NCBI GenBank assembly: GCA_019240835.1
Contig: JAFAXQ010000246.1
Location: 1 to 61,070 of the forward strand
Length of the DNA: 61,070 nucleotides
Origin: Ktedonobacteraceae bacterium
GTDB taxonomy: Bacteria; Chloroflexota; Ktedonobacteria; Ktedonobacterales; Ktedonobacteraceae
Reading direction: 5' to 3'
Shown: positions 8,497 to 25,870 of the stretch, one piece after another
Layout: every line of letters begins with the position of its first letter
Numbering within the stretch: the first letter of the stretch is position 1
The notes under the pieces: generated by a model
What the model was told of the DNA's origin: nothing
The model's input: only the letters and a program-made list of their open reading frames with translations
The model's database searches: none
Position numbers and translations under genes: made by a program

Positions 8497-8827
8497 GGGG
8501 TCCCTCCTTCCTCTTGGCAGGATAGCCAGACCGCGTGACGCGGCGCACTTCTCTCCCCCAAGGGTCAGTCGTCATGAGTTTTTGCACATCTTGGTACTTG
8601 TCTTGGTCAAGTAGTCGCAGAATGCGCTCTGCCCCTTGCCTCATGCGCTTGAGAATCACCTCATGGCGTGCGGTACCCGAAGCAAGTCCATACAGCCCGA
8701 GCCAGGCGGCTTGTTCCTCTAACGCTTGTTGCTCTCTGAAGCGTGCTATCTCACTAACGATATGGTCAGACACTTTGCTATTCCCTTTCTTGTCGTTTTT
8801 ATGTTCATATGTAGAGTTGACAAACAA
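8471..8827 (-). CDS. Hypothetical protein
   Basis: 118-aa ORF overlapping the downstream receiver-like gene by 26 nt. No recognisable motif. Confidence 0.35.
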   Translation of the reverse strand: MFVNSTYEHKNDKKGNSKVSDHIVSEIARFREQQALEEQAAWLGLYGLASGTARHEVILKRMRQGAERILRLLDQDKYQDVQKLMTTDPWGREVRRVTRSGYPAKRKEGPHGQAHSGA

Positions 8828-8992
8828 CCCTTATCGTGACATACTCACAGCAAGCATGCTAAAGTGTTGTCTAAACTGTAGACGAGTATAGCATTTCCAA
8901 TGCACAACCAGATAAGCGTTTCAGACTCCTCTGCACTTGCGCTTATGTCCAGGCGCTCATCTAGCGGGTATATTTCTTCTTAGCACATATAT

Positions 8993-10378
8993 ATGTGTAT
9001 ACAGATAAGGAGAGGATGTATGCCCTACAAGCAACTAGACACACGAGCTATGTCGCAGTTCACGATGGATGAGCTATTGACACAGGTGGCGGAAGTGAAA
9101 AATGGCAGGCCCAACTGGGGAGCTATTCTGCACTATTTTCGTCAGCAGATGGGTTGGAAAGCCTGGGAGTTGGGTCTGCTCTATGGGGAGGCCTTGCAAG
9201 ATGAGGAGCTTGAGCAAGAGCCAAAGACGGCTAGTTGGATCTACATGATGGAAAGCCAGAACATGGTTCCTTGGGATGAGAAGCGGCGCTGGATTCTGGC
9301 CACCCTGCTGGATATCCCCCCAGTGCTCTTCGGCCTGCAAGCAGGGCATAATGCAGCCCCAGCGGGTGAGGAACCAGCCTCAGCTCTAAGCACTCTTCTG
9401 AGTTGGGAGCGGGTGGACATTGCAGAATATCGTGCGACATTAGCACGACTGTGTGCTACTTATCATAGTGAGACACTTTCTCTTGCTCTCATGGATATCA
9501 AGCGCAGGATGCAGAGTCTGCATACTGATCTTGCCTTCAGGACAGCACCGGACAAAGAAGCACTCCAGCGACTGCTCTGCGAGTATTACCTTCTGGCGGC
9601 ACGCATAGCCCACGATCAGGGAGCCTCAGAGATAGCCATTGGACTGCTGAGCAGGGTGATTATGCTAGCTGAGCATGAGAGTCTGTTTGATCTGCATGCC
9701 TATGCACTGCGTGAGCGAGCGATATGTCACTCGGGAATCGGGTTCATCAAGGCTCTTGAGGGCCGGACGAAGGCTGCGCAAGAGCAGTATGCTGCTGCTG
9801 CTCGCGATGCGCTTGCCTCACGCAGTCTTGCAGCAAAAATCCCGCCGCTGTGGCGAGGCATTGTCTTGCTTTCTGCTGGTGCCACTATTGCCGGTATAGC
9901 GCGGGATCACAATGAATTACTTGAGGCCTTGAGGGTGATCGACCAGGGGGCAAAAGAAATAGGCAAGCATACCCAAGACAAACGTATTCCAACAGTACTT
10001 GACGAAGAACTGTACCTTAGTATAAGGGCGCGAGCCTACATTCAGTCGCCGTTCAAAGGCGCGTACTTTCCCGCATCAGCACGCCAGGCATTAGAGGAAT
10101 CAGCAAAAGTAGCAAAAATCAGTTCTAAACCGCGTCGTGCTGAAATGGCTGTGATTATAGCATGGTCTTATTTTATGGAGGAGTTGTATCCAATGGCCAC
10201 CGAGGCTATGGAACAGGCTATTGTGGCCGTGCGGAATTGCCAGGGCACAGAGAAGTATTTTGCCCGTCTTGAGGCACTCTACAGAGGACTGAGAAGCAGT
10301 GAGTTCGGCAAGGATGCCGAAGTGGCACGCTTAGGGGTGACGTTGCTGCGAGCACGAAGGCCTGGTCTCTTCAACTAA
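8993..10378 (+). CDS. XRE-like HTH N-terminal domain protein with helical-repeat (TPR-like) C-terminal region
   Basis: N-terminal segment WIYMMESQNMVPWDEKRRWILATLLDIPPVLFGL resembles XRE-type HTH. The remainder is long and alpha-helical. Start uncertain (alternative Met codons at 9020 and 9050). Confidence 0.45.
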   Translation: MCIQIRRGCMPYKQLDTRAMSQFTMDELLTQVAEVKNGRPNWGAILHYFRQQMGWKAWELGLLYGEALQDEELEQEPKTASWIYMMESQNMVPWDEKRRWILATLLDIPPVLFGLQAGHNAAPAGEEPASALSTLLSWERVDIAEYRATLARLCATYHSETLSLALMDIKRRMQSLHTDLAFRTAPDKEALQRLLCEYYLLAARIAHDQGASEIAIGLLSRVIMLAEHESLFDLHAYALRERAICHSGIGFIKALEGRTKAAQEQYAAAARDALASRSLAAKIPPLWRGIVLLSAGATIAGIARDHNELLEALRVIDQGAKEIGKHTQDKRIPTVLDEELYLSIRARAYIQSPFKGAYFPASARQALEESAKVAKISSKPRRAEMAVIIAWSYFMEELYPMATEAMEQAIVAVRNCQGTEKYFARLEALYRGLRSSEFGKDAEVARLGVTLLRARRPGLFN

Positions 10379-15169: not shown

Positions 15170-15314
15170 CCTTTGGGGCTTTGCCAGTGGAAGAAAAGGC
15201 TATTGCTCACCGAAACGGTTAATGTTAGCTATTGACAATGCCATAATAAGTAGTATGCTTGTGTAAAGTTGTGTATACGAAAACTTCGATGCATTCCTCG
15301 TGGATGGAGAAAAC

Positions 15315-16772
15315 ATGCCGACTAATCCTGAAGGGCTCATTGGGCAAGTGATCGCTGGGTACCGGTTGAAAACGCTGCTCGGCACTGGTGGGATGGGGGC
15401 TGTTTTTTTGGCTACAGACGAGGCTGGATGCGAGGTGGCGATCAAGATTCTTATCCCGCCTCCCGTGCTCACAAACGCTACCTCCATTCGCGTCATCAGT
15501 AAGCGTTTCCTGCGCGAGGCTCAGACCTTGAGTCGCTTGAAGCACCCCAACATCCTATCGCTCTATTCTTCTGGAGTGGATGAAGACCACGACCGCATCT
15601 ATATGGTCATGCCCTATATCAGGGGAGGCACGCTGGCAAATAGTTTACGTCGAGGACCTATGGCCCTGGACAAGGTACTCTACTATGTCAAACAGATAGC
15701 TGCTGCTCTCGATTATGCCCATGAGCACAATGTTATTCACCGTGACCTCAAACCAGCTAATGTGCTGATCGACGAGAATGACCATGTCTATCTGGCCGAT
15801 TTTGGCATCGCCAAGGTTTTCGACGTGGGAACGACCATATTGACCAAGACGGACCAGATGATGGGTACCCCTGGCTATATGGCTCCAGAGCAGATCACCA
15901 ATGGGCCTGTAAGCCCAGCGACTGATGTGTATGGGCTTGCTGCAATGACCTACCGATTGATTACCGGGTGGCTGCCGTTCGCCACTTCTTCGCTGGCCGC
16001 CGCCTTGGAGTTGATACTGCACGGTACTCCACAATCCCCACGTCTGCTGCGTCACGAGCTGCCAGCTCCGGCGGCAGATGTAATCTTACAAGGGCTGGCT
16101 AAAAGACCCGATGAGCGCTTTGCCAGTGCTGGAGCCTTTCTCTATGCTCTAGAAAGAGGACTACAAGGCAAGTATACTACACCGCCTACAATGCTAGTAC
16201 CTACTATCCAAACATCCTCTTCCGTCGAACAAGTAAATTCTTACTTGCTGCCTCAAACTCCCTGGCATACAGAATTGATGGACTCTGCCACTCCTGACTC
16301 CAGTGTGCTCTCCGGCTCTTTTCCAGCGCCACAACCACGTGCAGTTTCAACCTCCCAGTCAGCGGCTATAGCGCCCTCTCCTGCTAAGGCGAAGAGGCAT
16401 CTTTCTGGCTTGTTGTTTGTCGCAGCGGTCTCTGCTAGCCTATTGATTGCACTGTCATTCCTCTTGCTGTTTCACTCACAAGTAGGAAGAGACGGCCCGC
16501 CAGCAGTAGCATTCGAAACTACCCCTACAGTGCTTATGGTAACACAGACGGCGCAGCCTTCGCCGATGGGCGTGCCTACTTCAGGCGAGAGCTACCCCGC
16601 TACCCCTATGCCCACGGACACTCCTGCACCTGTACCCACGAACGCTCCTACCCCTCTACCCACAAATACTCCTACGCCGGTGCCCACACCTACACCGACG
16701 CCCACGCCTACACCTAAGCCAACGCCGACGCCCACACCGACGCCCGCACCTACACCCACGCCAACTCCATAG
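15315..16772 (+). CDS. Membrane-anchored Ser/Thr protein kinase with Pro/Thr-rich extracellular tail
   Basis: GTGGMGAVF...AIK, HRDLKPANVL, DFGIAK and GTPGYMAPE Hanks motifs. One TM (LLFVAAVSASLLIALSFLLLF), then a PT-repeat tail. Confidence 0.9.
   Translation: MPTNPEGLIGQVIAGYRLKTLLGTGGMGAVFLATDEAGCEVAIKILIPPPVLTNATSIRVISKRFLREAQTLSRLKHPNILSLYSSGVDEDHDRIYMVMPYIRGGTLANSLRRGPMALDKVLYYVKQIAAALDYAHEHNVIHRDLKPANVLIDENDHVYLADFGIAKVFDVGTTILTKTDQMMGTPGYMAPEQITNGPVSPATDVYGLAAMTYRLITGWLPFATSSLAAALELILHGTPQSPRLLRHELPAPAADVILQGLAKRPDERFASAGAFLYALERGLQGKYTTPPTMLVPTIQTSSSVEQVNSYLLPQTPWHTELMDSATPDSSVLSGSFPAPQPRAVSTSQSAAIAPSPAKAKRHLSGLLFVAAVSASLLIALSFLLLFHSQVGRDGPPAVAFETTPTVLMVTQTAQPSPMGVPTSGESYPATPMPTDTPAPVPTNAPTPLPTNTPTPVPTPTPTPTPTPKPTPTPTPTPAPTPTPTP
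16610..16769 (+). repeat. Pro/Thr-codon low-complexity repeat (PTPTPTP...) at the kinase 3' end
   Basis: Read directly. The antisense GVGVGV ORF (16592..17008) is its shadow. Confidence 0.9.
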
Positions 16773-16897
16773 CAGACTGTAGTGTGGTTTGTGGTGCTCT
16801 TCGCCTGCAAACCACAGCACATTTTCAGCGTGCCAGTACTACAGGCACGAGGGAATATGATATCATGTTTCTCATTAACAATAGTTAGGAGGATTCT

Positions 16898-18259
16898 GTG
16901 CTGATGAATGCTTACGATGTAGTCCAGCGAGTACATAACGCAAATATACGGCTTGTGCGCTTCCTGTACTGCGACAACGGTGGCCTCATTCGTGCCAAGA
17001 CAACTCATGCCACTAAGCTAGCTACTCGCATGCAGGAGGGAATTGGGCAGACGCTTGCTATGCAGGCTTTTACTGCAGTTGAGACACTTGCCCAGGTTGA
17101 GGGTATGGGACCCGTCGGCGAATTTCGTCTCGTTCCTGATCCCGAAACATTTGTAATGCTGCCATACGTCCCCAATTCGGCTAGTATGATGTGCGATATG
17201 ATGCGCACAGAGACAACGGCGTGGGAGGCATGTCCGCGTACTTTCTTGAAACATATGGTTGGCAGGCTGGCTGAACGGGGTATGCGTGCTGAGGCTGCTG
17301 TCGAGCATGAGTTTTATCTCGCACGCGAAGAAATGGGCCAGTACGTGCCAGCAGATCGCAGCCTCTGCTACAGCACTATCGGACTGGACGAGCAGGCCGA
17401 GGTGATTGATGCCATTCTTGCAGCTCTGGAGGCTCAGGGTATCTCCATCGAGCTATGTCACACTGAGCTAGGTCCAGGCCAGCAAGAACTATCTATTCAT
17501 CACTCTCCCGTCTTGAGGGCAGCCGATCATGTGTGCCTTGTGCGCGAGACAACACGCGGTGTAGCCCGTGCCTTTGATCTGTTTGCATCATTTGCTCCCA
17601 AGCCTTTCCTGGATCAAGCAGGTAGCGGCGCTCATATTCACATAAGCCTGTGGGGAACTGCAGAGAATACACGCAAAAATCTCTTCTATGATGCCAGTGA
17701 GCGTGGTGTACTTAGTCAGTTGGGGAAATACTTTATCGGCGGTGTATTGCGCCACATTCGTGGTCTGGTTGCCATTACTTGTGGAAGCCCCAACTCCTAT
17801 CGTCGCCTGCTGCCTCACTTCTGGAGTTCTGCGTATGCTGCCTATGGCTATGATAACCGCGAAGGAGCCATTCGTGTGCCATCTGTCTTCTGGGGTCGAG
17901 AAGCCGACTCAATCAACCTTGAACTGAAGAGTGCCGATCATAGTGGAAACCCCTATCTGGCACTGGGTACTCTTATTGCTGCAGGGCTTGATGGCATTGA
18001 GAATCATATCGATGCGGGAGAAGCGCAGGACATTGATCCAGGAAACTACAGTGATCAGGAGCGTGAGCGGCGTGGTATTCATCGTCTACCTACAACGCTA
18101 GATGAGGCCCTTGACGAACTGGAGCGCGACGCTGTCCTCAAAGAGGCGTTGGGACCGCTGCTAGCAACCTCTTATATCGCGGTAAAACGCGACGAGTGCG
18201 CATTCTTCAAAGAGAAATCTCCCGAAGAGGAAGCGCGCCAGCACTTTTATAAATATTAA
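16898..18259 (+). CDS. Glutamine synthetase-family (type I-like) ligase, possibly a gamma-glutamyl-amine synthetase
   Basis: HTELGPGQQELS, GSGAHIHISLW, NSYRRL and NPYLA motifs of the GS catalytic domain. AGGAGG SD at 16887. Confidence 0.8.
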   Translation: MLMNAYDVVQRVHNANIRLVRFLYCDNGGLIRAKTTHATKLATRMQEGIGQTLAMQAFTAVETLAQVEGMGPVGEFRLVPDPETFVMLPYVPNSASMMCDMMRTETTAWEACPRTFLKHMVGRLAERGMRAEAAVEHEFYLAREEMGQYVPADRSLCYSTIGLDEQAEVIDAILAALEAQGISIELCHTELGPGQQELSIHHSPVLRAADHVCLVRETTRGVARAFDLFASFAPKPFLDQAGSGAHIHISLWGTAENTRKNLFYDASERGVLSQLGKYFIGGVLRHIRGLVAITCGSPNSYRRLLPHFWSSAYAAYGYDNREGAIRVPSVFWGREADSINLELKSADHSGNPYLALGTLIAAGLDGIENHIDAGEAQDIDPGNYSDQERERRGIHRLPTTLDEALDELERDAVLKEALGPLLATSYIAVKRDECAFFKEKSPEEEARQHFYKY

Positions 18260-18299
18260 GTCGCTCCGCCAAGGCGACCACAAGAGTCGCCCTGGCTTC

Positions 18300-19799
18300 T
18301 CAACAGGATTTGATATCGTCAGTCAAGCACGTCTGCATCTCTTTCCATAACTCTCGCACATGCTGTTCGGTGGTGCGTAGGTTGCCGATAGCTACACGGA
18401 TAGTGAACTGATTGTGTATCTTCGTGTGCGAGAGAAAGAAGTGGCCGGCTACGTTGATGCGATTCATAATGCGTTCATTCAGTATATTGAGTTGTGTTTC
18501 ATCATCTATGCCGCGAGGGTGGGCGCGGAGACAGACGAGGCTAAACGGGGTAGGGGCCATCAGTTCGAAATCAGGAGCCTCTTTGACCCACTTGGCTAGT
18601 TCTTGCGCGAGCCGGATGTGCTCGCGGATGCGTGCGGCGATGCCTTCTTGTCCGAAGTAGCGCAGTACCATCCAGAGCTTGAGCGAGCGGAAGCGGCGTC
18701 CGAGTGCGTTACCGTAGTCCATCAGGTTGGGTACCTCATCGCCGCTGCTCTCGGCATTGCGCAGGAATTCGGGGGTGAGGCTAAATGCCGCTTTAACGAC
18801 ATCGGGCTTGCGAGTGTAGAAGACGCTGCAATCGACCGGGGTGAAGAGCCATTTGTGCGGGTTGACGATCAGCGAATCGGCGCGGTCGCAGCCGCTCAGA
18901 ATCCAATGCATGTCGGGATCGACGGCTGCTATACCTGCATAAGAGGCATCGACATGCAGCCAAAGCTTGTAGTGCTCACAGATGTCGGCGATGTGGGGAA
19001 TCGGATCGATACTGCTGGTTGAGGTAGTGCCGATGGTGCCGACAACGGCGAATGGGAGCCAGCCAGCGGCCCTATCTTCCTCAATGGCGCGTTCGAGTTC
19101 GGCAACGTCCATACGGAATTGGTTATCCGTTCCAATCTTATGTAGGCCCTGCTGTCCAACACCTAACACGATGGCCGCTTTGTCCACGGAGGAGTGGGCT
19201 TCTTGAGAGGTGTAGAGACGGAGGCGTGGTAGCTCACTGCGACCGGCCATCCCTTGTTGACGGATGTGAAGATCAGCAATAGTCTCGCGAGCAGCAGCTA
19301 AGGCGTAGAGGACACCCGAGGAGGCTGTATCGTTGATGATGCCAAAGAGCGGACGGGGCAACCCCAACATCTGGCGCAGCCAGTCGAGGGTCACCTGCTC
19401 TAGCTCGGTAGCAGCCGGAGAGGTGCGCCAGAGCATTGCGTTGACGTTCAGTGCGCTGCATAGCATTTCACCGAGGATGCCAGGACCAGACCCTGTAATG
19501 CCGAAGTACGCCATGAAACCAGGGCTGTTCCAATGCGTGATCCCGGGCATCAAAATCCTGTCGAAATCAGTTAGGATGGCCTCCATCGCTTCGGGATGCT
19601 TGGGAGGCTGCTCGGGTAACGCACGGCGGATGTCTCCGGGCGTATTGGGTGAGAGTACGGGATACGTGCCGACCTCCCTCAAATACTCGGCTATCCAGTC
19701 TACAATTTGATATCCATAGTGGCGGAATGCTTCCGTCTCCATGTCACCAGTGGCCGCTAGTTGCTGTGCTGCGTCTAGAGCCGTGTGTTCTTCTTTCAT
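18300..19799 (-). CDS. PLP-dependent group II decarboxylase (aromatic L-amino-acid decarboxylase-like)
   Basis: NPHKWLFTPVDCS PLP-lysine motif and DDC-family N-terminus (FRHYGYQIVDWIAEYL). Start moved to MKEEHTA (19799) with a GGAG SD, 13 nt after the upstream gene stop. Confidence 0.85.
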   Translation of the reverse strand: MKEEHTALDAAQQLAATGDMETEAFRHYGYQIVDWIAEYLREVGTYPVLSPNTPGDIRRALPEQPPKHPEAMEAILTDFDRILMPGITHWNSPGFMAYFGITGSGPGILGEMLCSALNVNAMLWRTSPAATELEQVTLDWLRQMLGLPRPLFGIINDTASSGVLYALAAARETIADLHIRQQGMAGRSELPRLRLYTSQEAHSSVDKAAIVLGVGQQGLHKIGTDNQFRMDVAELERAIEEDRAAGWLPFAVVGTIGTTSTSSIDPIPHIADICEHYKLWLHVDASYAGIAAVDPDMHWILSGCDRADSLIVNPHKWLFTPVDCSVFYTRKPDVVKAAFSLTPEFLRNAESSGDEVPNLMDYGNALGRRFRSLKLWMVLRYFGQEGIAARIREHIRLAQELAKWVKEAPDFELMAPTPFSLVCLRAHPRGIDDETQLNILNERIMNRINVAGHFFLSHTKIHNQFTIRVAIGNLRTTEQHVRELWKEMQTCLTDDIKSC

Positions 19800-19812
19800 C
19801 TGTTTCTCCTTT

Positions 19813-20664
19813 TCATGTGTTACTCTGTGGAGCGCGCCAGTAGCGACGGCTGGTGAGATTATCGCCGGGCTGGTTGGCTGTGCTAGAGACCAAACCTGCA
19901 TGTTGCAGGTGATTGAGCGCATCAAGCAAGGCTTTGGGACGCACATGTTGTGGATCAGCAAGCTGGCGTTGCAATATGCGCTGTAAGTCGGCAAGTGTCA
20001 GCCCATCTTCAGTGGGCAGTACCATAAGCACGAGATGAGCCAATCGCTGCTGCGCTTTCCAGTGGACGCTCTGTTCAAACGCCTGTTGCTGCTGCCTTGG
20101 GTTAGCTGGTGGGGGGGAGAAGCGTACCTCGAAACGGCATACAGGTGCTCCTTGCCTCATACACGTCACCTCGCGAATATGCACCGTCTCACCATAGCGC
20201 TGTGCGGCTCCCTCGATAGCCCCTAGCAGCACAGGGCACAATTTACGTGGACTGTCATAGATCAGTACCAGTTCACGTGGGTTATTGGGGGAAAGCACAT
20301 ATTTAAAAAGGGGAGGGGTCAGTGCATCGGATGCGAGATGCATCTGGGCGTGAGCATCGCTCATCACTAGCAAAAGATCACATCCACTATGCACTTGGGC
20401 GAGAAGGTACATACAGAGATGCCTTGTCAAGCCATTTATCATGAAATAGCGGCCATATTCTTGTAGTAAAGTATCCACAGGCGTACGGGTGAGTTTGCTG
20501 GCCATGCTCACTCCGGCTAGCAGAGTCCTATCATCATAGATGCGGCTCACGAGAGGAGCAGTTGCCGCCGTCTCCCCAAGAGCGGCACGATAGGCGTAGA
20601 GCAGTTTCTCGCCGAAGTGCTCGGCTAAATATTTCTCCCATGTTACAAAGATTAAGCCCTGCAT
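19813..20664 (-). CDS. H-NOX (heme NO/O2-binding) domain protein with winged-helix-like C-terminal extension
   Basis: MQGLIFVTWEKYLAEHFGEKLL aligns with the H-NOX N-terminus. A candidate proximal His lies in SDAHAQMH. Y-x-S-x-R motif (YDSPR) followed by GAIEG. The C-terminal roughly 100 aa (LTLADLQRIL...LLDALNHLQHAGLV) look wHTH-like. Confidence 0.7.
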   Translation of the reverse strand: MQGLIFVTWEKYLAEHFGEKLLYAYRAALGETAATAPLVSRIYDDRTLLAGVSMASKLTRTPVDTLLQEYGRYFMINGLTRHLCMYLLAQVHSGCDLLLVMSDAHAQMHLASDALTPPLFKYVLSPNNPRELVLIYDSPRKLCPVLLGAIEGAAQRYGETVHIREVTCMRQGAPVCRFEVRFSPPPANPRQQQQAFEQSVHWKAQQRLAHLVLMVLPTEDGLTLADLQRILQRQLADPQHVRPKALLDALNHLQHAGLVSSTANQPGDNLTSRRYWRAPQSNT

Positions 20665-20779
20665 CTAACGTTTGTTGCCTTTCAAAAAGTCTTATCATCA
20701 ACGGTTAGGGTGAAAGCATTTCCCTTTAGAAGGTCAGGAAACTGTTTCATAAAAACTTGACACTGTATTGATGAACTTA

Positions 20780-20808
20780 ACAATAGCAGAGATGAAATGA
20801 TTATGCAA
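20780..20808 (-). promoter_or_regulatory. Candidate sigma70-type promoter for the H-NOX/decarboxylase pair
   Basis: On the minus strand: TTGCAT, 17 nt, TATTGT, about 110 nt upstream of the ATG at 20664. Confidence 0.4.
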
Positions 20809-20872
20809 TCCTACCGCTGTGTCTGTGGTACTTTCATCACGTCTTGGCAGAGTATCGATCACTCTTTACCTA

Positions 20873-21880
20873 CTAGGTGCCAAATCGTCTATACTGACCT
20901 ACACCCACGCAGTCACGAACCATCTCTAGTGTTTCGTTCGCCTCTTCTCTAGCGCGACGGGCACCCTCGCGAAGAATGTCTTCTACGGTGTCCAAGTCTT
21001 GTTCAAGTTCGTGTCGCTTCGTTTTGAGCTGATCAAAGAACTCCTTTAGCTTCATCTGCAGCTCAGCCTGGGCTTGCCGACGGGTGATGCCACCTCGTTG
21101 GTAACGGCTGAGTATGTCGTTTTGTTGCTCTGGTGTCGCCATAAGTCGATACAGCGCAAAGATCGTATCCATCTTGGGGGCACGTGCGTGGCTGCTCGCT
21201 CTCGCGAGCCTCTTGATCTCGGCAAGTCTGCTGCCTAGTTCGTCGACAGCCGCAAAGATAGCAAAGGCGTTGTTGTAGCTCTTGCTCATCTTCCGGCCAT
21301 CGGTACCTGTGGCCGCATCATTGACCCTCATAGTAGGTATCGGGAAAATGGGAGTGTCAAAAGCGGTGTTAAAGGCCATTGCGATATTGCGCGTAATGAT
21401 CAACCGCTGATCCTGATCCTCTCCCACTGGCACGATTGTTGCACGTAAAGCTAGGATGTCAGCAACCGCGAGCTGGGAGGAGAGAAACGATTCTATAGAT
21501 GAGTTTATTCTTTTCGCTGCTAGGCGCATGTAGTCCATTTGTGCCTTCCTCGTAACGCAGGTCAGGATCCACATCAACTCACAGACCTGTGGTACATCGG
21601 ACTGACGGTAGAATATAGCTTTATTCGGATCCAAGCCCAGAGCCAGATAATCAAGCGCCAATGCCTGCGACTGACGTCGTAGTTGCTCTGGAGCGCGGAT
21701 TGAGATCAGTGCCTGATAGTCCGCAATGAAATAGAAAGACTCGCCGGGGTATTCATGCTGCAGTTCGATGTGTTGCTTGATAGCTGCAAAGTAATTGCCC
21801 AGGTGCAGCATATCGGTCGGCTGGAGGCCTGAGACAACGCGTGCTGGGAAGTTACCGTCGTTGACATGGCTATCTACCAT
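20873..21880 (-). CDS. trpS: Tryptophan--tRNA ligase-like class I aaRS (divergent paralogue-like)
   Basis: HLGN (HIGH), VGEDQDQ and KMSKS motifs at TrpRS spacing. Several otherwise conserved TrpRS segments are diverged. Confidence 0.75.
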   Translation of the reverse strand: MVDSHVNDGNFPARVVSGLQPTDMLHLGNYFAAIKQHIELQHEYPGESFYFIADYQALISIRAPEQLRRQSQALALDYLALGLDPNKAIFYRQSDVPQVCELMWILTCVTRKAQMDYMRLAAKRINSSIESFLSSQLAVADILALRATIVPVGEDQDQRLIITRNIAMAFNTAFDTPIFPIPTMRVNDAATGTDGRKMSKSYNNAFAIFAAVDELGSRLAEIKRLARASSHARAPKMDTIFALYRLMATPEQQNDILSRYQRGGITRRQAQAELQMKLKEFFDQLKTKRHELEQDLDTVEDILREGARRAREEANETLEMVRDCVGVGQYRRFGT

Positions 21881-21924
21881 TTTTGATACCCCTTTCCACG
21901 GCTTACGGCGAGTTCAGAACCTTG

Positions 21925-23208
21925 TCAGTTCATAGGCGAGAGCACTGGCCGTGCATGTACATGCACAGGTGGTCGTATGTCGGGCCAGAAGGTTCTGCGG
22001 TAGTTAGTAGGTAAAATCTTACGTCGATAAATCATTTCCAAGTAGGGTGTGCCACGCGTTCCGCCCGTTCCCGTCGTCGCTTCCGCAGGAAGATAGTGCC
22101 GTGCTATTCCCAAGTGCAGGCACCGCCAGGCATACAGCGCCTGATCTAGTGCCGCCGCCTGGGCAGCGAATGCCGTTGCGCCGGGGGGAGTATTCCCTTC
22201 CACTGTGCATAAGACCGTGCGGAGGTCGACAAAGCGAGGGTGGCCATAGAACACGAGATCAGCAATCTCCGGTGTGGCCGCAAAGTTCTCGGCGTTACGC
22301 TCATCTAGACCCGCGGTGAATATTTGCATGAGTTGGTAGGTGCGAGACTGTATGGCACTTGCATTTCCTGTGGCATCACGGAATTTGGCGAAGTGCTCTG
22401 GAGGCATCGTCTTGAACATCTGAAACAAGGGGACGAGTACTTTTGCGAAAGTGACCGCATCCGATAGGTGGGCAGCGGCTGAATCGAGTTGTCCGCACTT
22501 CGCACTCTCGATGGCAGCAACAACGCCTGCCAAAACCGCCCAGAAGATGCACTCAGAGATGTGGATGGTGCGCAAGAAGAGGAATTCATCGTGTTCCTGT
22601 GTCTGAGGCAGAGCAGTGAGGTAGAGAAGGGCCAAGGTTCGACTTTCATCGAGAGTATAGCTGAACCAGTCATCGGGAGGCGCATCCATCTGAATGCGTG
22701 CAAGCAGTTGGAACTGTACGTTTGTGAGTTGCGCATGTAGTTTCTGGAGAAGGTGAACCCGTCTATCGACAACGTGCAAGTCACAGCTTTGCTGTTGCCA
22801 AGGCTCTACTTGCGCCAGGGAACACACTTCAAATGATAGGAGATCTTGCAACAGCACCTGAATTGCCATCCAGCAGCGAGCACGCACAGTGGACCAAGTA
22901 GCGCGTCGGGTTGTACCCAGCACCCAGTTCAAGACGTGAATATTGGTATAGGCTGGATAGCGTGGTTCTGGGTGGTTCAGGAAGAACCATTCGGAGAACA
23001 GTACTCGTTCGGCCAAGTCAAGTGTGGTGGCAAGTTGTTTTGAAGTGAACGGTTCTTTTTGGCGGAACCAATGAATCTGTTCGTAGAGAGTTGCTGCCCG
23101 GTGTCGGAGTTCTTGGTCAAGGCTGGCACGGCCCTGACTACGCGAGAATCCAATGTACTCACGCACAGAGAGCTGCCGCAAGGCATTTCTAATCTGGTCT
23201 TCTTTCAT
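21925..23208 (-). CDS. Tryptophan 2,3-dioxygenase-superfamily heme protein with roughly 200-aa N-terminal extension
   Basis: HDEFLFLRTIHISE, FAKFRDATGNASAIQSRTYQLM and WRCLHLGIARHYL...GTGGTRGTPYL match TDO signature blocks, including the proximal-His context. Confidence 0.65.
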   Translation of the reverse strand: MKEDQIRNALRQLSVREYIGFSRSQGRASLDQELRHRAATLYEQIHWFRQKEPFTSKQLATTLDLAERVLFSEWFFLNHPEPRYPAYTNIHVLNWVLGTTRRATWSTVRARCWMAIQVLLQDLLSFEVCSLAQVEPWQQQSCDLHVVDRRVHLLQKLHAQLTNVQFQLLARIQMDAPPDDWFSYTLDESRTLALLYLTALPQTQEHDEFLFLRTIHISECIFWAVLAGVVAAIESAKCGQLDSAAAHLSDAVTFAKVLVPLFQMFKTMPPEHFAKFRDATGNASAIQSRTYQLMQIFTAGLDERNAENFAATPEIADLVFYGHPRFVDLRTVLCTVEGNTPPGATAFAAQAAALDQALYAWRCLHLGIARHYLPAEATTGTGGTRGTPYLEMIYRRKILPTNYRRTFWPDIRPPVHVHARPVLSPMN

Positions 23209-23227
23209 TAATCTGATCTTCTTTCAT
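23190..23227. repeat. 19-bp tandem duplication spanning the TDO-like start codon
   Basis: TAATCTGGTCTTCTTTCAT (23190-23208) and TAATCTGATCTTCTTTCAT (23209-23227), one mismatch, read directly. Confidence 0.9.
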
Positions 23228-23513
23228 ATAGCTCTTTCCAAGGGTTGGACTCATTACCACGAGCATAATTGAAGAAAGTTTCTTTCTTTCGGAAAGACGT
23301 GCAGGGATTTCATTTTTAGGGATGAATATACCGACAAGCGGATTTTATGGGTGGGGGGATCAAGCTCTTGGTAAGAACTGTGTATGCCCCATGAATGCGA
23401 CGAATGCGTCGGTTTTTTGCGCCACACGTTGGAAAGCATGTCACTTCTGTACATAAGCGGCTATGTGCTCGTGTATGCTTTCTCCAAATTTAGCCAAAAG
23501 GGGTGATGAGTAG

Positions 23514-23542
23514 TTGACAAATTGCTGGAACAAAGCTATAGT
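23514..23542 (+). promoter_or_regulatory. Near-consensus sigma70-type promoter of the ilv operon leader
   Basis: TTGACA (23514-23519), 17-nt spacer, TATAGT (23537-23542). Confidence 0.6.
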
Positions 23543-23680
23543 AGCAATATATTCTTCAGGGTGCTTGAAGCATTGAAACGGGTGATACAAAGTGCTCCGA
23601 CGAAGGCGACATAGTAGTCTTTGTGTCAACCAGATGAAACTGCTTCAAAAAAACCCCCTTGCAGTTGGTGGAGTACAGTC

Positions 23681-23995
23681 ATGTTGGCAACGTTTAGTAC
23701 AACAGAGATAGCAATGGCCGCTTATCAAGGTGGTATTGAACGTATGCCCTCCTCTCTGCCTGCAATGTGTATGTGCATATCAGCCATGGCTACCACCGCT
23801 GCTAGCATCACTCTTGTAAGAACCGACGTATCTGCGTCGGTTTCTTTATTTGTCGTGCCGCTTCTTGTGTGCTTCCTTCTTCTTGTATGTGTATTAATTA
23901 GCCTCCTCCTTACGCGCCTTACCAGACTTGTTGGGCTTGAGAGTCTGGTAGGGCTAACGAGGGAACTAGCCACAAACACGCTACGGGGAGATTAA
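23681..23995 (+). promoter_or_regulatory. Leader ORF with Leu/Val-rich 3' half (candidate attenuation peptide or small membrane protein)
   Basis: ATG at 23681 with a GGTGGAG SD 7 nt upstream. The last 46 codons (from 23855) contain 16 Leu, 6 Val and 1 Ile. The ORF ends 41 nt before a perfect terminator. Confidence 0.35.
23821..23852 (+). terminator. Terminator-like hairpin inside the ilv leader
   Basis: AACCGACG-tatctg-CGTCGGTT followed by TCTTTATTTG. Confidence 0.4.
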
Positions 23996-24036
23996 GGAAG
24001 CAACGAGGCAACCCAATCCAAAGAAGGTAATTTGAT

Positions 24037-24068
24037 GAGAACCTCCCTTGTGGGAGGTTCTCTTTTTT
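24037..24068 (+). terminator. Intrinsic terminator (attenuator) 27 nt upstream of ilvB
   Basis: GAGAACCTCCC-ttgt-GGGAGGTTCTC followed by TTTTTT. No room for a separate promoter before the ilvB start at 24095. Confidence 0.75.
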
Positions 24069-24094
24069 ATCATCATTTATTCTCAGGAGGAATT

Positions 24095-25870
24095 ATGGCA
24101 GTAGCTGCGAAGGCTCTGCAACAGCAGAGCGCAATACATCAAACAAGCCGACAGGAAGAAGATATTCGTGAACTGGCAGGTAGCCATATTCTCTGTGAGG
24201 CACTTGTGCGCGAAGGGGTGGAGCTGCTCTATGGCTATCCCGGTGGAGCAATTATGCCCTTCTATGATGCACTCACCTCCTATCCGACGCTCCATCACGT
24301 GCTGGTACGACATGAGCAGGCCGCAGCCCATGCCGCTGATGGCTATGCGCGGGCAACAGGCAAAGTCGGCGTTTGCGTTGCAACCAGCGGTCCTGGTGCA
24401 ACCAATCTTGTGACGGGCCTTGCTACAGCGTACATGGACTCAACATCGGTTGTTGCCATCACTGGCCAAGTCGGTCGGCCTCTTATCGGGCGCGATGCCT
24501 TCCAGGAGACAGATATGCTCGGCGTCACTCAGCCGATCACCAAGCACAACTTCTTGGTGCGCAACACTGAAGAGATTGCTGATGTCGTGCATGAGGCATT
24601 TCGTGTTGCGCGTAGTGGTCGTCCTGGCCCTGTGCTCATTGATGTCCCCAAGGATGTGCAGCAAACTAAAGCCTACTATCATCCCTGGGCAGCGGTGACT
24701 TCTGACGAGTATTTACGCCTTCATACCTCACCGCGTCCTGCAGCATATCTGTTGTCCCAGGCAGCCCAATTAATCGCGCAGTCACAGCGTCCACTCATTA
24801 TGGCTGGCCACGGGGTCATTCTCTCAAACGCCTATGCCGAACTGTATGCGTTCGCCGAGAAGACTTCCATTCCGGTGATTACAACGTTGCTCGGCTTAAG
24901 TGCTTTTCCCGATACCCACCCGCTGCACATCGGCATGCCTGGCATGCATGGTCCCGCCCACGTCAATGAAGCCATCGGAGTGGCGGACCTGATTATCGGT
25001 GTGGGTCTACGTTTCGATGACCGTGTGACTGGCAAGGTGAGCGAATTTGCGCCTCACGCACGTATCATTCACATCGATATCGATCCCTCGGAGATGCATA
25101 AGGTAAAGGTAGCAACCGTGCCAATCGTCGCCGATGCGAAAGTAGCATTGTCAGCTCTCACCGAAGTTGTAGCCGCCGACGACAAAAGCGCGTGGCTCAA
25201 GGAAATCCGTTCATGGGAAGCAGAGGACAATGAGCGTCTGCAAGGTGTACAGCGCAATGACAAGCTTCCTGATCCTATTGGTATCGTGCAAGCTATCTGT
25301 ACGGCTACCAATGGGGAAGCGATCATCGTCACCGATGTGGGGCAGCACCAGATGTGGACGGCACGCCACTATTGCTGGACACGTCCCAATAGTCATATCA
25401 CCTCGGGAGGGCTGGGCACGATGGGCTTCGCACTGCCCGCTGCTATGGGCGTCAAGATGGGTTGGCCGGATAGCACGGTGTGGGTCGTAGCTGGTGACGG
25501 TGGTATTCAGATGAACATTCAGGAGTTGGCCACACTGCAACAGGAAGGACTTAGTGTGAAGGTGGCTATTATGAACAACGGCTACTTGGGCATGGTGCGC
25601 CAGTGGCAGCATTTCTTCCACGCGGGCAATTACTCTGAGACGCCCATCAGTGGGCCGAACTATGTAAAGCTTGCCGATGCCTATGGGCTGACTGGCATAC
25701 AAGTCAACCGGCGCGAAGAGGTCGGGGCGGCTGTGCAGCGTGCGATGCAGACCGAAGGCTCCGTCATTATTGATTTCGTGATTGAGTCGGAAGCGAATGT
25801 CTATCCCATGGTAGCCCCCGGTTCAGCCATCACCAGCATGATCGAAGAGGTTCCGGAGGAGAAATCGTAA
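24095..25870 (+). CDS. ilvB: Acetolactate synthase large subunit
   Basis: ThDP-enzyme motifs (GYPGGAI, GPGATN, GGLGTMGFALPAA...GDGG...NN). AGGAGG SD at 24085. The ORF-track start at 24032 would run through the terminator. Confidence 0.9.
   Translation: MAVAAKALQQQSAIHQTSRQEEDIRELAGSHILCEALVREGVELLYGYPGGAIMPFYDALTSYPTLHHVLVRHEQAAAHAADGYARATGKVGVCVATSGPGATNLVTGLATAYMDSTSVVAITGQVGRPLIGRDAFQETDMLGVTQPITKHNFLVRNTEEIADVVHEAFRVARSGRPGPVLIDVPKDVQQTKAYYHPWAAVTSDEYLRLHTSPRPAAYLLSQAAQLIAQSQRPLIMAGHGVILSNAYAELYAFAEKTSIPVITTLLGLSAFPDTHPLHIGMPGMHGPAHVNEAIGVADLIIGVGLRFDDRVTGKVSEFAPHARIIHIDIDPSEMHKVKVATVPIVADAKVALSALTEVVAADDKSAWLKEIRSWEAEDNERLQGVQRNDKLPDPIGIVQAICTATNGEAIIVTDVGQHQMWTARHYCWTRPNSHITSGGLGTMGFALPAAMGVKMGWPDSTVWVVAGDGGIQMNIQELATLQQEGLSVKVAIMNNGYLGMVRQWQHFFHAGNYSETPISGPNYVKLADAYGLTGIQVNRREEVGAAVQRAMQTEGSVIIDFVIESEANVYPMVAPGSAITSMIEEVPEEKS

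Follow-up and report, generated by a model that had tools for sequence, protein, structure and literature searches.

The DNA analysed here (the window) is a stretch of 61,070 nucleotides from a Ktedonobacteraceae bacterium, a member of the Chloroflexota, which agrees with the Chloroflexota-like genome that an initial annotation had supposed. At positions 19813..20664, on the (-) strand like all other features given below, it carries a complete gene, stop codon included, whose 283-aa product begins with MQGLIFVTW. This open reading frame is present in the ORF list just as the initial annotation had described it, and its extent is supported by full-length homologues of 60-85% identity. The product consists of an H-NOX domain fused to a winged-helix-like tail.

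Three Trp-related genes surround the fusion gene. Downstream lies a PLP-dependent decarboxylase of the aromatic-amino-acid type (18300..19799; Pfam Pyridoxal_deC, 328 bits), the ATG of which is found 13 nt past the H-NOX stop codon and is preceded by an AAGGAG Shine-Dalgarno sequence, and thus the decarboxylase is probably co-transcribed with the fusion gene. On the other side we found a TrpRS-like class I aminoacyl-tRNA synthetase (20873..21880), with the same cassette present in loci L066 and L069, and a divergent, 427-aa member of the tryptophan 2,3-dioxygenase (TDO) superfamily (21925..23208; Pfam Trp_dioxygenase, 47 bits). The latter protein belongs to a rare family with 49 matches, and an exact look-up of it in the contig index returned no record. 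The TDO-like, TrpRS-like and decarboxylase neighbours form a lineage-specific cassette, and the nearest genome relative (L006) has none of the three. An operon with the decarboxylase, as proposed initially, stands for the window and for its relative L066 but not as a family trait; the latter idea was rejected, as the linkage was seen only in the window and at that metagenome locus. The wider surroundings hold ilv/leu genes, a GS-like gene, a permease and, further off, a Ser/Thr kinase. A kinase, cyclase or MCP partner was sought by a Pfam scan of 15 neighbouring window ORFs and none was found, nor did the window locus contain an adjacent histidine kinase of the HnoX-HnoK type or a GGDEF/EAL gene. 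A search of positions 16000-25000 for riboswitches and T-boxes gave no Rfam matches.

Residues 1-183 (20116..20664) are, by both profile match and predicted fold, a genuine H-NOX domain with its haem-ligating residues intact. The Pfam HNOB profile (PF07700) matches residues 3-164 with 81.1 bits (E 1.1e-22), covering profile positions 2-162 of 163, against a gathering cut-off of 25.5 bits. Searches of the PDB with phmmer and with a family profile gave matches that were essentially all H-NOX or sGC, one chain bearing a different depositor name. The best match with the family profile was Shewanella oneidensis H-NOX (E 4.5e-15), followed by Nostoc, Tt H-NOX and sGC beta1. The full-length AF2 model (pLDDT 78.7) has the H-NOX fold, with a helical N-terminal and an alpha/beta C-terminal sub-domain, and its H-NOX part superposes on the Nostoc, Shewanella and Tt proteins (PDB 2o09, 4u9b and 1u4h) with TMt 0.82-0.85. 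Foldseek placed 2o09 and 4iae at TMt 0.85 (E 3e-10), and 46 of its 50 top matches were H-NOX or sGC; TRAPP/Bet3 also appeared among the matches, and Pfam V4R matched residues 137-181 with 32.8 bits. The H-NOX identity proposed for the N-terminus is thus borne out by profile and model alike. Its supposed Thermoanaerobacter-type character survives in part: the H-NOX motifs are there, but the closest relatives, by structure and by sequence, are the NO-type proteins of Shewanella and Nostoc.

Conservation of individual residues was counted over 55 genome-derived homologues of the fusion protein. The predicted proximal haem ligand is H105 (codon at 20350..20352), which the family-profile alignment places opposite So H103 and Tt H102 and which is kept in 55/55 homologues. 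The initial annotation had correctly sought this ligand in the segment SDAHAQMH, where it is the first His, H105, and not H109. The first pairwise phmmer alignment had pointed to H109, and we rejected it because it is not conserved (Arg in most homologues) and because the profile alignment assigns the position to H105. P118 (54/55) follows H105 by 13 residues, just as P115 follows H102 in Tt H-NOX. The haem-propionate motif Y-x-S-x-R, read earlier as YDSPR, is present as Y136-D-S138-P-R140 (20245..20259), its key residues being kept in 54/55, 53/55 and 55/55 homologues, respectively; the MxGxI..xW opening and GAIEG (residues 148-152) were likewise found as described.

In the distal pocket, Tt Y140 aligns with V145, a position at which the 55 homologues have V, L, I or M but in no case Tyr, so the distal Tyr is indeed replaced, as had been noticed at first sight. 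The Tt N74 position is F74, and of the Tt-type O2 network W9/N74/Y140 only W9 is retained. With F74 and V145 in place of N74 and Y140, O2 binding is not expected, and the pocket would be of the NO type, favouring NO over O2. It might nevertheless be assumed that, as a haem sensor, the domain responds to O2, CO or the availability of haem itself, or else that it is a haem-free, V4R-like domain for a Trp-derived metabolite of the cassette. Such an assumption can draw on the retention of W9, on the position of the window gene inside a Trp-modifying cassette and not beside an NO synthase (NOS) gene, and on the common fold of H-NOX and V4R, to which the V4R and TRAPP/Bet3 matches testify. On the other hand, the domain lacks the distal Tyr and Asn on which stable O2 binding depends, the invariant proximal His, YxSxR and Pro argue for haem, and the adjacency to NOS in 13 loci described below argues for NO. 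We consider these other ligands very improbable.

A second conserved site, in the C-terminal H-NOX/V4R sub-domain, is rich in cysteines. C143, C168 and C176 align with C139, C164 and C172, the zinc ligands of So H-NOX, and are kept in 53-54 of the 55 homologues. The zinc-site subgroup of H-NOX (Shewanella/Vibrio groups 2-3) has three Cys together with His or Gln (PMC7108781), while the fourth position of the fusion protein is E165 (53/55 homologues). As the zinc site has a role in redox sensing by Vc H-NOX (PMC7108781), the primary signal might be oxidative or thiol stress perceived at this site, either independently of haem or in addition to it, with the winged helix still serving as the output; the V4R-containing regulator MsvR would offer a parallel. 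The V4R match, together with a weak match to the NCBIfam MsvR model over the same stretch, would fit this idea. The Glu in place of His or Gln does not, the complete haem signature is equally invariant although a haem-free sensor would have no need of it, and the NOS linkage points to NO. Oxidative or thiol stress thus seems to have little chance of being the primary signal. Redox sensing and haem sensing are compatible modes and do not exclude each other.

The H-NOX domain is followed by a flexible linker (residues 184-199; 20068..20115), variable in sequence among homologues and with pLDDT below 50 at residues 189-198, and then by the C-terminal domain (residues 200-283; 19816..20067). The C-terminal ~85 residues are conserved, with invariant L216, P217, R242, G257, R273, Y275 and W276, and by this criterion the domain is real and under selection. 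In the full-length AF2 model it has pLDDT 74-90 and the topology H-S-H-H-S-wing-S, made up of H1 (200-215), a bridge at 222, H2 (224-234), H3 (243-255) and the wing strands 259-261 and 274-277; when the tail was modelled alone (pLDDT 65), three helices only were obtained and the wing was unformed. The initial description of the tail as winged-helix-like is therefore supported by the predicted topology, but not by any HTH-family match above threshold or by a significant Foldseek match. Against the curated HTH families of Pfam, every match stayed below the gathering score (HTH_Crp_2 14.4 bits, MarR 13.4, Rrf2 12.9, PadR E 0.016). The weak Pfam matches common to several members were to winged-helix families only (MCM4_WHD, PadR, MarR, Rrf2 and HTH_Crp_2), and MCM4_WHD matched the tails of 17 of 28 family members, its best E value (5.5e-4) belonging to a member other than the window protein. 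With the low-confidence model of the tail, the top Foldseek matches were mostly winged helices (Fur, PerR, Zur, histone H1, cullin WHB and LmrR), at TMq 0.5-0.6 and E >=0.64. The tail profile gave only spurious, irrelevant matches among PDB sequences. By hhalign, no alignment to SmtB or MarR was found, while PadR-family LmrR aligned over the whole domain and in register, yet non-significantly.

When residues 186-283 were compared exhaustively by phmmer with 1.84 billion representatives, 48 matches were obtained. The tail in other architectures was looked for among these: each of the nine inspected proved to be this fusion, complete or as a fragment, and the listed lengths and match positions of the remainder fit as well, which is consistent with a tail confined to the H-NOX fusion. 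Since the winged-helix matches are all sub-threshold, DNA binding by the tail is something we infer from the modelled fold. A different use of the same fold is conceivable, in which the H-NOX domain senses NO and the winged helix is a protein-interaction or dimerisation module, so that a partner enzyme (NOS, a PPOX-type flavoprotein, the decarboxylase or the TDO-like protein) is regulated directly, much as in stand-alone H-NOX. It is in line with this that the tail has no significant match to a bacterial HTH family, that the weak matches include winged helices which do not bind DNA (cullin WHB, MCM4_WHD, EAP30 and RPA_C), and that all characterised bacterial H-NOX proteins work via protein partners (PMC8738867). 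It is, however, precisely in H3, the predicted recognition helix, and in the wing that polar and basic residues (R242, H252, R273, R274 and R277) are strongly conserved, and this speaks against an interaction module.

The 208-nt intergenic region upstream of the fusion gene (20665..20872) is a candidate promoter/operator. In a three-way alignment with L006 and L066, supported by blastn synteny, blocks 20767-20839 and 20665-20700 are conserved. Within the first of them, at 20827..20835, lies GAAAGTACC, a copy of the motif RAAAGTACY, which in forward orientation is enriched ~12x over intergenic background upstream of operons that encode such H-NOX/winged-helix proteins. This enrichment favours a regulator over a protein-partner module. 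As the motif occurs mostly in single copy and with an orientation bias, though sometimes in inverted or tandem copies, it could equally be a promoter element or an operator. A family-wide palindromic operator was also sought upstream of the gene and of NOS-first operons, and nothing was found above shuffled controls, which suits the protein-partner module better. An 18-bp palindrome, TACACAAG-N2-CTTGTGTA, is clade-specific and is absent from the window even when 3 mismatches are allowed.

The window protein is no one-off. The fusion family comprises several hundred sequences, is restricted to Ktedonobacterales, and has members already on deposit under the name "heme NO-binding domain-containing protein". 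Individual genomes carry at least 1-4 copies, a number typical of a transcription-factor family, which we count in favour of a transcription regulator and against a module for a protein partner.

Gene neighbourhoods were compared over 59 loci carrying the fusion gene. In 13 of them, spread over several clades, a bacterial NOS gene directly adjoins it, with a gap of just 3 nt in Dictyobacter arantiisoli; the pair is carried by the cultured D. arantiisoli, D. kobayashii, D. aurantiacus and strain brp13. This recurrent adjacency is the strongest functional clue that we have, and it lies outside the window, in which tblastn detected no NOS. We propose that the gene is co-transcribed with NOS in many Ktedonobacterales, and the usual signal of the family would thus probably be the cell's own NO. 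On one hand, so tight an arrangement, with translational coupling in places, would also fit a stoichiometric complex of sensor and enzyme. On the other hand, the neighbours vary by locus (NOS, a PPOX-type flavoprotein, the Trp cassette or none of these), which makes a single conserved protein partner unlikely. The recurrent neighbours in the 59 loci include no kinase, cyclase, GGDEF or MCP cluster, and comparison of the PPOX-like neighbour with the PDB gave nothing informative. Weighing both sides, we regard the protein-partner module as rather unlikely.

The reading that we favour, with somewhat better than even confidence, is that the protein is a one-component, NO-responsive transcription regulator. 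It is built on domain identity, residue conservation, predicted fold and gene linkage, from which we infer binding of haem and NO, binding of DNA, the targets and the sign of regulation. In this regulator, haem would be bound via H105, with its propionates held by Y136, S138 and R140 and with P118 pressing on it, and the apolar distal pocket formed by V145 and F74 would give preference to NO over O2. When NO binds, the Fe-His bond would be strained or broken, with a shift of helix alphaF and of both sub-domains, as in Shewanella H-NOX. Through the ~15-residue linker, this movement would be passed to the attached PadR/MarR-like winged helix and not to a separate kinase or cyclase. The predicted recognition helix RPKALLDALNHLQH and the basic wing RRYWR would then bind DNA differently, and transcription would change. 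In the family at large, self-made NO would probably be the usual signal, for feedback or relay. In the window genome and in L066, the sensor lies within the Trp-modifying cassette and is probably its controller.

A broader picture may be drawn more tentatively, and we hold it to be possible though not probable. Ktedonobacterales would possess a self-contained NO circuit, in which NOS makes NO and an H-NOX protein from the same operon reads it and binds DNA; in the window lineage, the sensor would have been recruited to the Trp cassette, with NO gating a Trp-derived metabolite. Links between NOS and tryptophan exist in Deinococcus and Streptomyces, namely NOS-TrpRS II and the nitration of Trp in thaxtomin. 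If this is true, an H-NOX protein with direct transcriptional output would be known for the first time, as would an operon that joins NOS to H-NOX. From NO to gene expression, no shorter route would be known for this sensor family than a direct fusion of H-NOX to a DNA-binding domain, and one protein plus DNA would make a simple system in which to follow the conversion of a haem-nitrosyl into an output. The recurrent operon of NOS and sensor bears, moreover, on the purpose of NOS-derived NO in bacteria, and suggests endogenous NO as a signal in a bacterial phylum that is mycelial, sporulating and rich in metabolites.

According to reviews, bacterial H-NOX proteins either work with separate kinases and cyclases or are fused to MCPs. 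We found no paper describing H-NOX fused to a DNA-binding domain, in agreement with the novelty that the initial annotation had supposed for such a fusion, and the union of H-NOX and a probable DNA-binding domain in one protein is probably an arrangement without earlier description. The fusion protein resembles the stand-alone NO-sensing H-NOX proteins of Shewanella oneidensis (SO2144/HnoX), Vibrio cholerae and Nostoc (PDB 4u99, 2kii and 2o09) in its fold (TMt 0.82-0.85), in the proximal His, Pro and YxSxR and in an apolar distal pocket devoid of Tyr, and with the Shewanella/Vibrio proteins it shares the zinc-site Cys triad, though with Glu at the fourth position. Identity is only ~21-22%, and while those proteins are single domains of ~180 aa whose signal passes, with no covalent link, to a neighbouring histidine kinase or diguanylate cyclase (PMC8738867, PMC4436077), the fusion gene has no such partner gene and encodes an additional ~85-aa C-terminal winged helix. 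Tt H-NOX-MCP of Caldanaerobacter/Thermoanaerobacter (PDB 1u4h) has in common with it a covalent output domain and the MxGxI...W9 opening. Its output is, however, a membrane MCP signalling domain instead of a winged helix, and its O2-binding Tyr140 and Asn74 are V145 and F74 in the fusion protein.

MsvR of methanogens, an ArsR-type wHTH and V4R redox regulator, is similar in being a one-component protein that joins a domain of the H-NOX/V4R/Bet3 fold, with conserved Cys, to a winged helix. MsvR is archaeal, though, its HTH is N-terminal, so that the domain order is reversed in the fusion protein, and its V4R domain is not known to have haem ligands. Since NCBIfam NF053755 matches only residues 140-180 (the Cys-containing V4R end) with 14 bits, where at least 220 are required, the fusion protein is not a member of MsvR. 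One-component gas sensors, both those with haem (CooA, RcoM and DNR/NNR) and the non-haem NO sensors NsrR and NorR, likewise have the gas-binding sensor and the DNA-binding output on a single polypeptide. For sensing they use cNMP-binding-like, PAS, Rrf2 Fe-S or GAF non-haem iron folds, and none of them is known to have an H-NOX domain. Production of NO by NOS and its sensing by H-NOX within the same organism is shared with the animal NOS-sGC pathways and with Silicibacter sp. TrichCH4B (PMC4436077). In Silicibacter, H-NOX lies beside a hybrid kinase and not beside NOS, and its output is c-di-GMP via a phosphorelay, whereas the sensor of Ktedonobacterales carries its own output domain and is encoded next to NOS or in translational coupling with it.

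The gene at window 19813..20664 (minus strand) encodes the sensor, a protein of 283 aa (N-terminus MQGLIFVTWEKYL) that we lean towards regarding as a one-component NO-responsive transcription regulator. Its N-terminal domain is securely an H-NOX, since Pfam, PDB sequence matches and structural comparison all support this assignment. The PF07700 (HNOB) model matches residues 3-164 over nearly its entire length with 81.1 bits (E 1.1e-22; Pfam cut-off 25.5 bits), and a second Pfam match, V4R (residues 137-181), belongs to a fold superfamily shared with HNOB. Sequence searches of the PDB returned essentially H-NOX proteins only, the best being Shewanella oneidensis (So) SO2144 (E 8e-9 when the single sequence was the query and 4.5e-15 when the family profile was), followed by Nostoc Alr2278, Thermoanaerobacter-type (Tt) H-NOX and soluble guanylate cyclase (sGC) beta1. 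With an AlphaFold2 model (pLDDT 78.7, pTM 0.71; input alignment of 51 homologues), the top Foldseek matches in the PDB were 46 H-NOX/sGC chains at target-normalised TM-scores of 0.82-0.85, and TRAPP/Bet3 ranked below them as more distant matches.

The protein has all the features defining the H-NOX family that could be checked computationally. In the family profile H105 aligns with So H103 and Tt H102, P118 aligns with Tt P115, and Y136, S138 and R140 make up the Y-x-S-x-R motif; W9 is kept as well. Among the genome-derived homologues, H105 and R140 occur in 55/55, P118 and Y136 in 54/55 and S138 in 53/55. The initial annotation had located the proximal His in SDAHAQMH; a proximal His is indeed present there, and we can refine it to the first one, H105. 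The second, H109, which a pairwise alignment had picked, was rejected, being Arg in most homologues. On the distal side, V145 and F74 stand in the profile at the positions of Tt Y140 and N74, which places the sensor outside the O2-binding subclass, and all 55 homologues carry V, L, I or M at position 145, never Tyr. An apolar distal pocket lacking Tyr marks the NO-selective class (PMC8738867), and it seems improbable that the sensor answers to some other ligand. Three near-invariant cysteines, C143, C168 and C176, align with the So H-NOX zinc ligands C139, C164 and C172, the fourth ligand position (So H161) being Glu in this family. Because the triad is so aligned and conserved, a second, thiol-based redox input may be possible, for which Vibrio cholerae H-NOX (PMC7108781) offers a model. 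Thiol/zinc redox chemistry as the input itself has a slim chance of being right, and would be compatible with the NO-responsive reading.

A variable, low-confidence linker (residues 184-199) leads to the tail, which in the full-length AlphaFold2 model has the topology of a canonical winged helix (pLDDT 74-90): three helices, H1 (200-215), H2 (224-234) and H3 (243-255), the first two separated by a short bridge, then strands 259-261 and 274-277 on either side of a loop. Modelled by itself, the tail keeps the three helices with a pLDDT of just 65. None of the curated HTH models reached threshold on the tail, and no curated HTH family could be assigned. Weak, sub-threshold Pfam matches common to several of 28 family tails are winged-helix families, namely MCM4_WHD (17/28, best E 5.5e-4), PadR (7/28) and Rrf2 (4/28), with MarR, HTH_Crp_2, Cdc6_C, RPA_C and EAP30 as further weak matches. 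Foldseek with the tail model gave nothing significant (best E 0.64); its list consists mostly of winged helices, including the DNA-binding domains of Fur, PerR, Zur and Nur, and also linker histone H1, cullin WHB, SSV1 F-93 and LmrR. PadR-family LmrR was likewise aligned in register with the entire tail by hhalign (71 columns; E 0.022, not significant). The fold of the tail is likely a winged helix. Residues L216, P217, G221, R242, P243, G257, L258, R273, R274, Y275 and W276 are invariant in the family, and some of them are basic or polar residues that the model places on a putative recognition helix and wing. On one hand, DNA binding by the tail can reasonably be inferred; on the other hand, the winged helix might be a protein-partner module with a non-DNA role, which we hold to be unlikely. 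If the sensor is an NO-responsive regulator, a haem-nitrosyl would form at H105, the resulting shift of alphaF and the sub-domains would be transmitted via the linker, and the fused winged helix would bind DNA differently as a result.

Searching with the whole protein gave 743 relatives, of which the top 120 are all full-length (about 280 aa, 60-85% identity); those with names among them are 'heme NO-binding domain-containing protein' from Ktedonobacteraceae. Searched exhaustively against 1.84 billion representatives, the tail alone retrieved 48 proteins; each of the nine inspected is the same fusion or a fragment of it, and the other 39 are consistent with this by length and match position. 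A GTDB scan of one genome per species yielded 60 loci, all from Ktedonobacterales or MAGs labelled Chloroflexia, including Dictyobacter arantiisoli, D. kobayashii, D. aurantiacus, Tengunoibacter tsumagoiensis and strain brp13, with two to four paralogues per genome in several cases. Given this restricted distribution and the paralogues, the fusion is a lineage-specific, expanded family, a pattern typical of transcription factors.

In 13/59 loci from several clades (tblastn and neighbour clustering), a bacterial NO synthase (NOS) oxygenase gene directly adjoins the sensor gene on the same strand, upstream or downstream of it. These loci, on contigs from other genomes, are L005 (NOS at 8953-10197), L022 (NOS at 8804-9997), L007, L021, L024, L025, L027, L032, L043, L045, L049, L050 and L055. 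The neighbours score 527-540 bits with Pfam NO_synthase, and in D. arantiisoli only 3 nt separate the NOS stop from the sensor start. Chance adjacency is negligible, as there is roughly one NOS among several thousand genes per genome, and the dispersal of NOS-linked members across the NJ tree means that the linkage is either ancient or has recurred. For many relatives, NO made by the co-encoded NOS is the probable input. The neighbours in the 59 loci include no recurrent kinase, cyclase or MCP. In 14 loci (L003:6423-7541, L009:4080-5141, L021:11888-13006, L024:4201-5241 and 10 further) the sensor gene adjoins one for a PPOX-type FMN flavoprotein with two domains and about 350-370 aa, in L021 and L024 together with NOS. 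A PPOX-type FMN-binding domain makes up the C-terminal half of this flavoprotein (TIGR04025 and PNPOx_N, sub-threshold), its N-terminal half gave no match, and it might serve the reductase-less NOS as a redox partner.

In the window, the sensor gene has other neighbours. The window is collinear with L006, a Ktedonobacteraceae MAG contig, at 83-90% nucleotide identity, and in L006 the sensor gene stands alone, with the ilvB cluster on one side and a GS-like gene on the other. Collinearity is broken by two indels flanking the sensor gene, which correspond precisely to the decarboxylase (18261-19812) and to the TDO-like and TrpRS-like genes (about 20873-23400), all lacking from L006. Since these three genes occur together without a sensor in the more distant contig L069 (6001-10734), they form a cassette, also found in the window (18300-23208), L066 (5471-10362) and L068 (2640-7290). 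L066 has the identical four-gene arrangement, with a sensor protein (P0003) 81% identical to ours; only in the window's lineage is the sensor embedded in the cassette. Besides the TrpRS-like synthetase and the PLP decarboxylase, the cassette encodes a TDO-superfamily protein that is rare and divergent (425-445 aa, 49 database matches), and it looks like an uncharacterised tryptophan-modifying cassette. A PrnB-family gene lies near the cassette in L068. The decarboxylase ATG lies 13 nt past the sensor stop and is preceded by the Shine-Dalgarno AAGGAG, so that co-transcription of the two is likely. In this genome the likely target of the sensor is the cassette around it. The predicted recognition helix reads RPKALLDALNHLQH in the window clade, RPKVLLDALNHLQH in the close relatives P0002 and P0003, and RPSVLLEALRHLQH in the family consensus; three exposed differences from the consensus (K244, D248 and N251; nt about 19912-19935) could mean that DNA specificity has changed in the lineage whose sensor gene joined the cassette. 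Elsewhere, an antisense ORF at 16592-17008 (minus strand) translates as a long Gly-Val repeat, which indicates repetitive, low-complexity DNA just upstream of the GS-like gene, probably where the Ser/Thr kinase gene at 15300-16772 encodes a Thr/Pro-rich tail.

Two blocks in the 208 nt upstream of the sensor gene, 20767-20839 and 20665-20700, are conserved with L006 and L066, and Rfam gave no match in this region. No family-wide palindrome was found upstream of sensor genes or of NOS-first operons. One clade carries, 100-410 nt upstream, an 18-bp palindrome, TACACAAGATCTTGTGTA (TACACAAG-N2-CTTGTGTA), which is unique within those 20-kb loci and absent from the window (L001:7867-7884; L010:~9860-9877; L018:~9586-9603; L020:~43-60; L061:~9788-9805); it is perfect in L001/L002, and the copies in L010, L020 and L061 have mismatches at one or two positions. 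Within 300 nt upstream of sensor genes, AAAGTAC (extended, RAAAGTACY) occurs 10 times in forward orientation against 0.9 expected from the overall rate, and just twice in reverse. Upstream of NOS-first or flavoprotein-first operons there are 14 more copies, in 10/17 such loci, some of them inverted (L032: AAAAGTACTAGGAGTACTTTT) or in tandem at 10-13-nt spacing (L025, L009). Altogether, RAAAGTACY is orientation-biased (25 sites in 21 loci) and enriched about 12-fold upstream of sensor-containing operons relative to other intergenic DNA. The window has a single copy (20827-20835, minus strand), which falls within a conserved block, 170 nt before the sensor gene's start codon. The motif may serve the regulator as an operator half-site, or it may equally be a promoter element.

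A literature search returned no account of an H-NOX from Ktedonobacteria or of an H-NOX/HTH fusion, and we know of no NOS/H-NOX operon described. The protein joins a known sensor to a known output type in a combination for which we could not find a description, and the unreported NOS linkage makes it of wider interest than the window alone suggests. Silicibacter has been described as the first bacterium with both NOS and H-NOX (PMC4436077); there the H-NOX gene adjoins a kinase.
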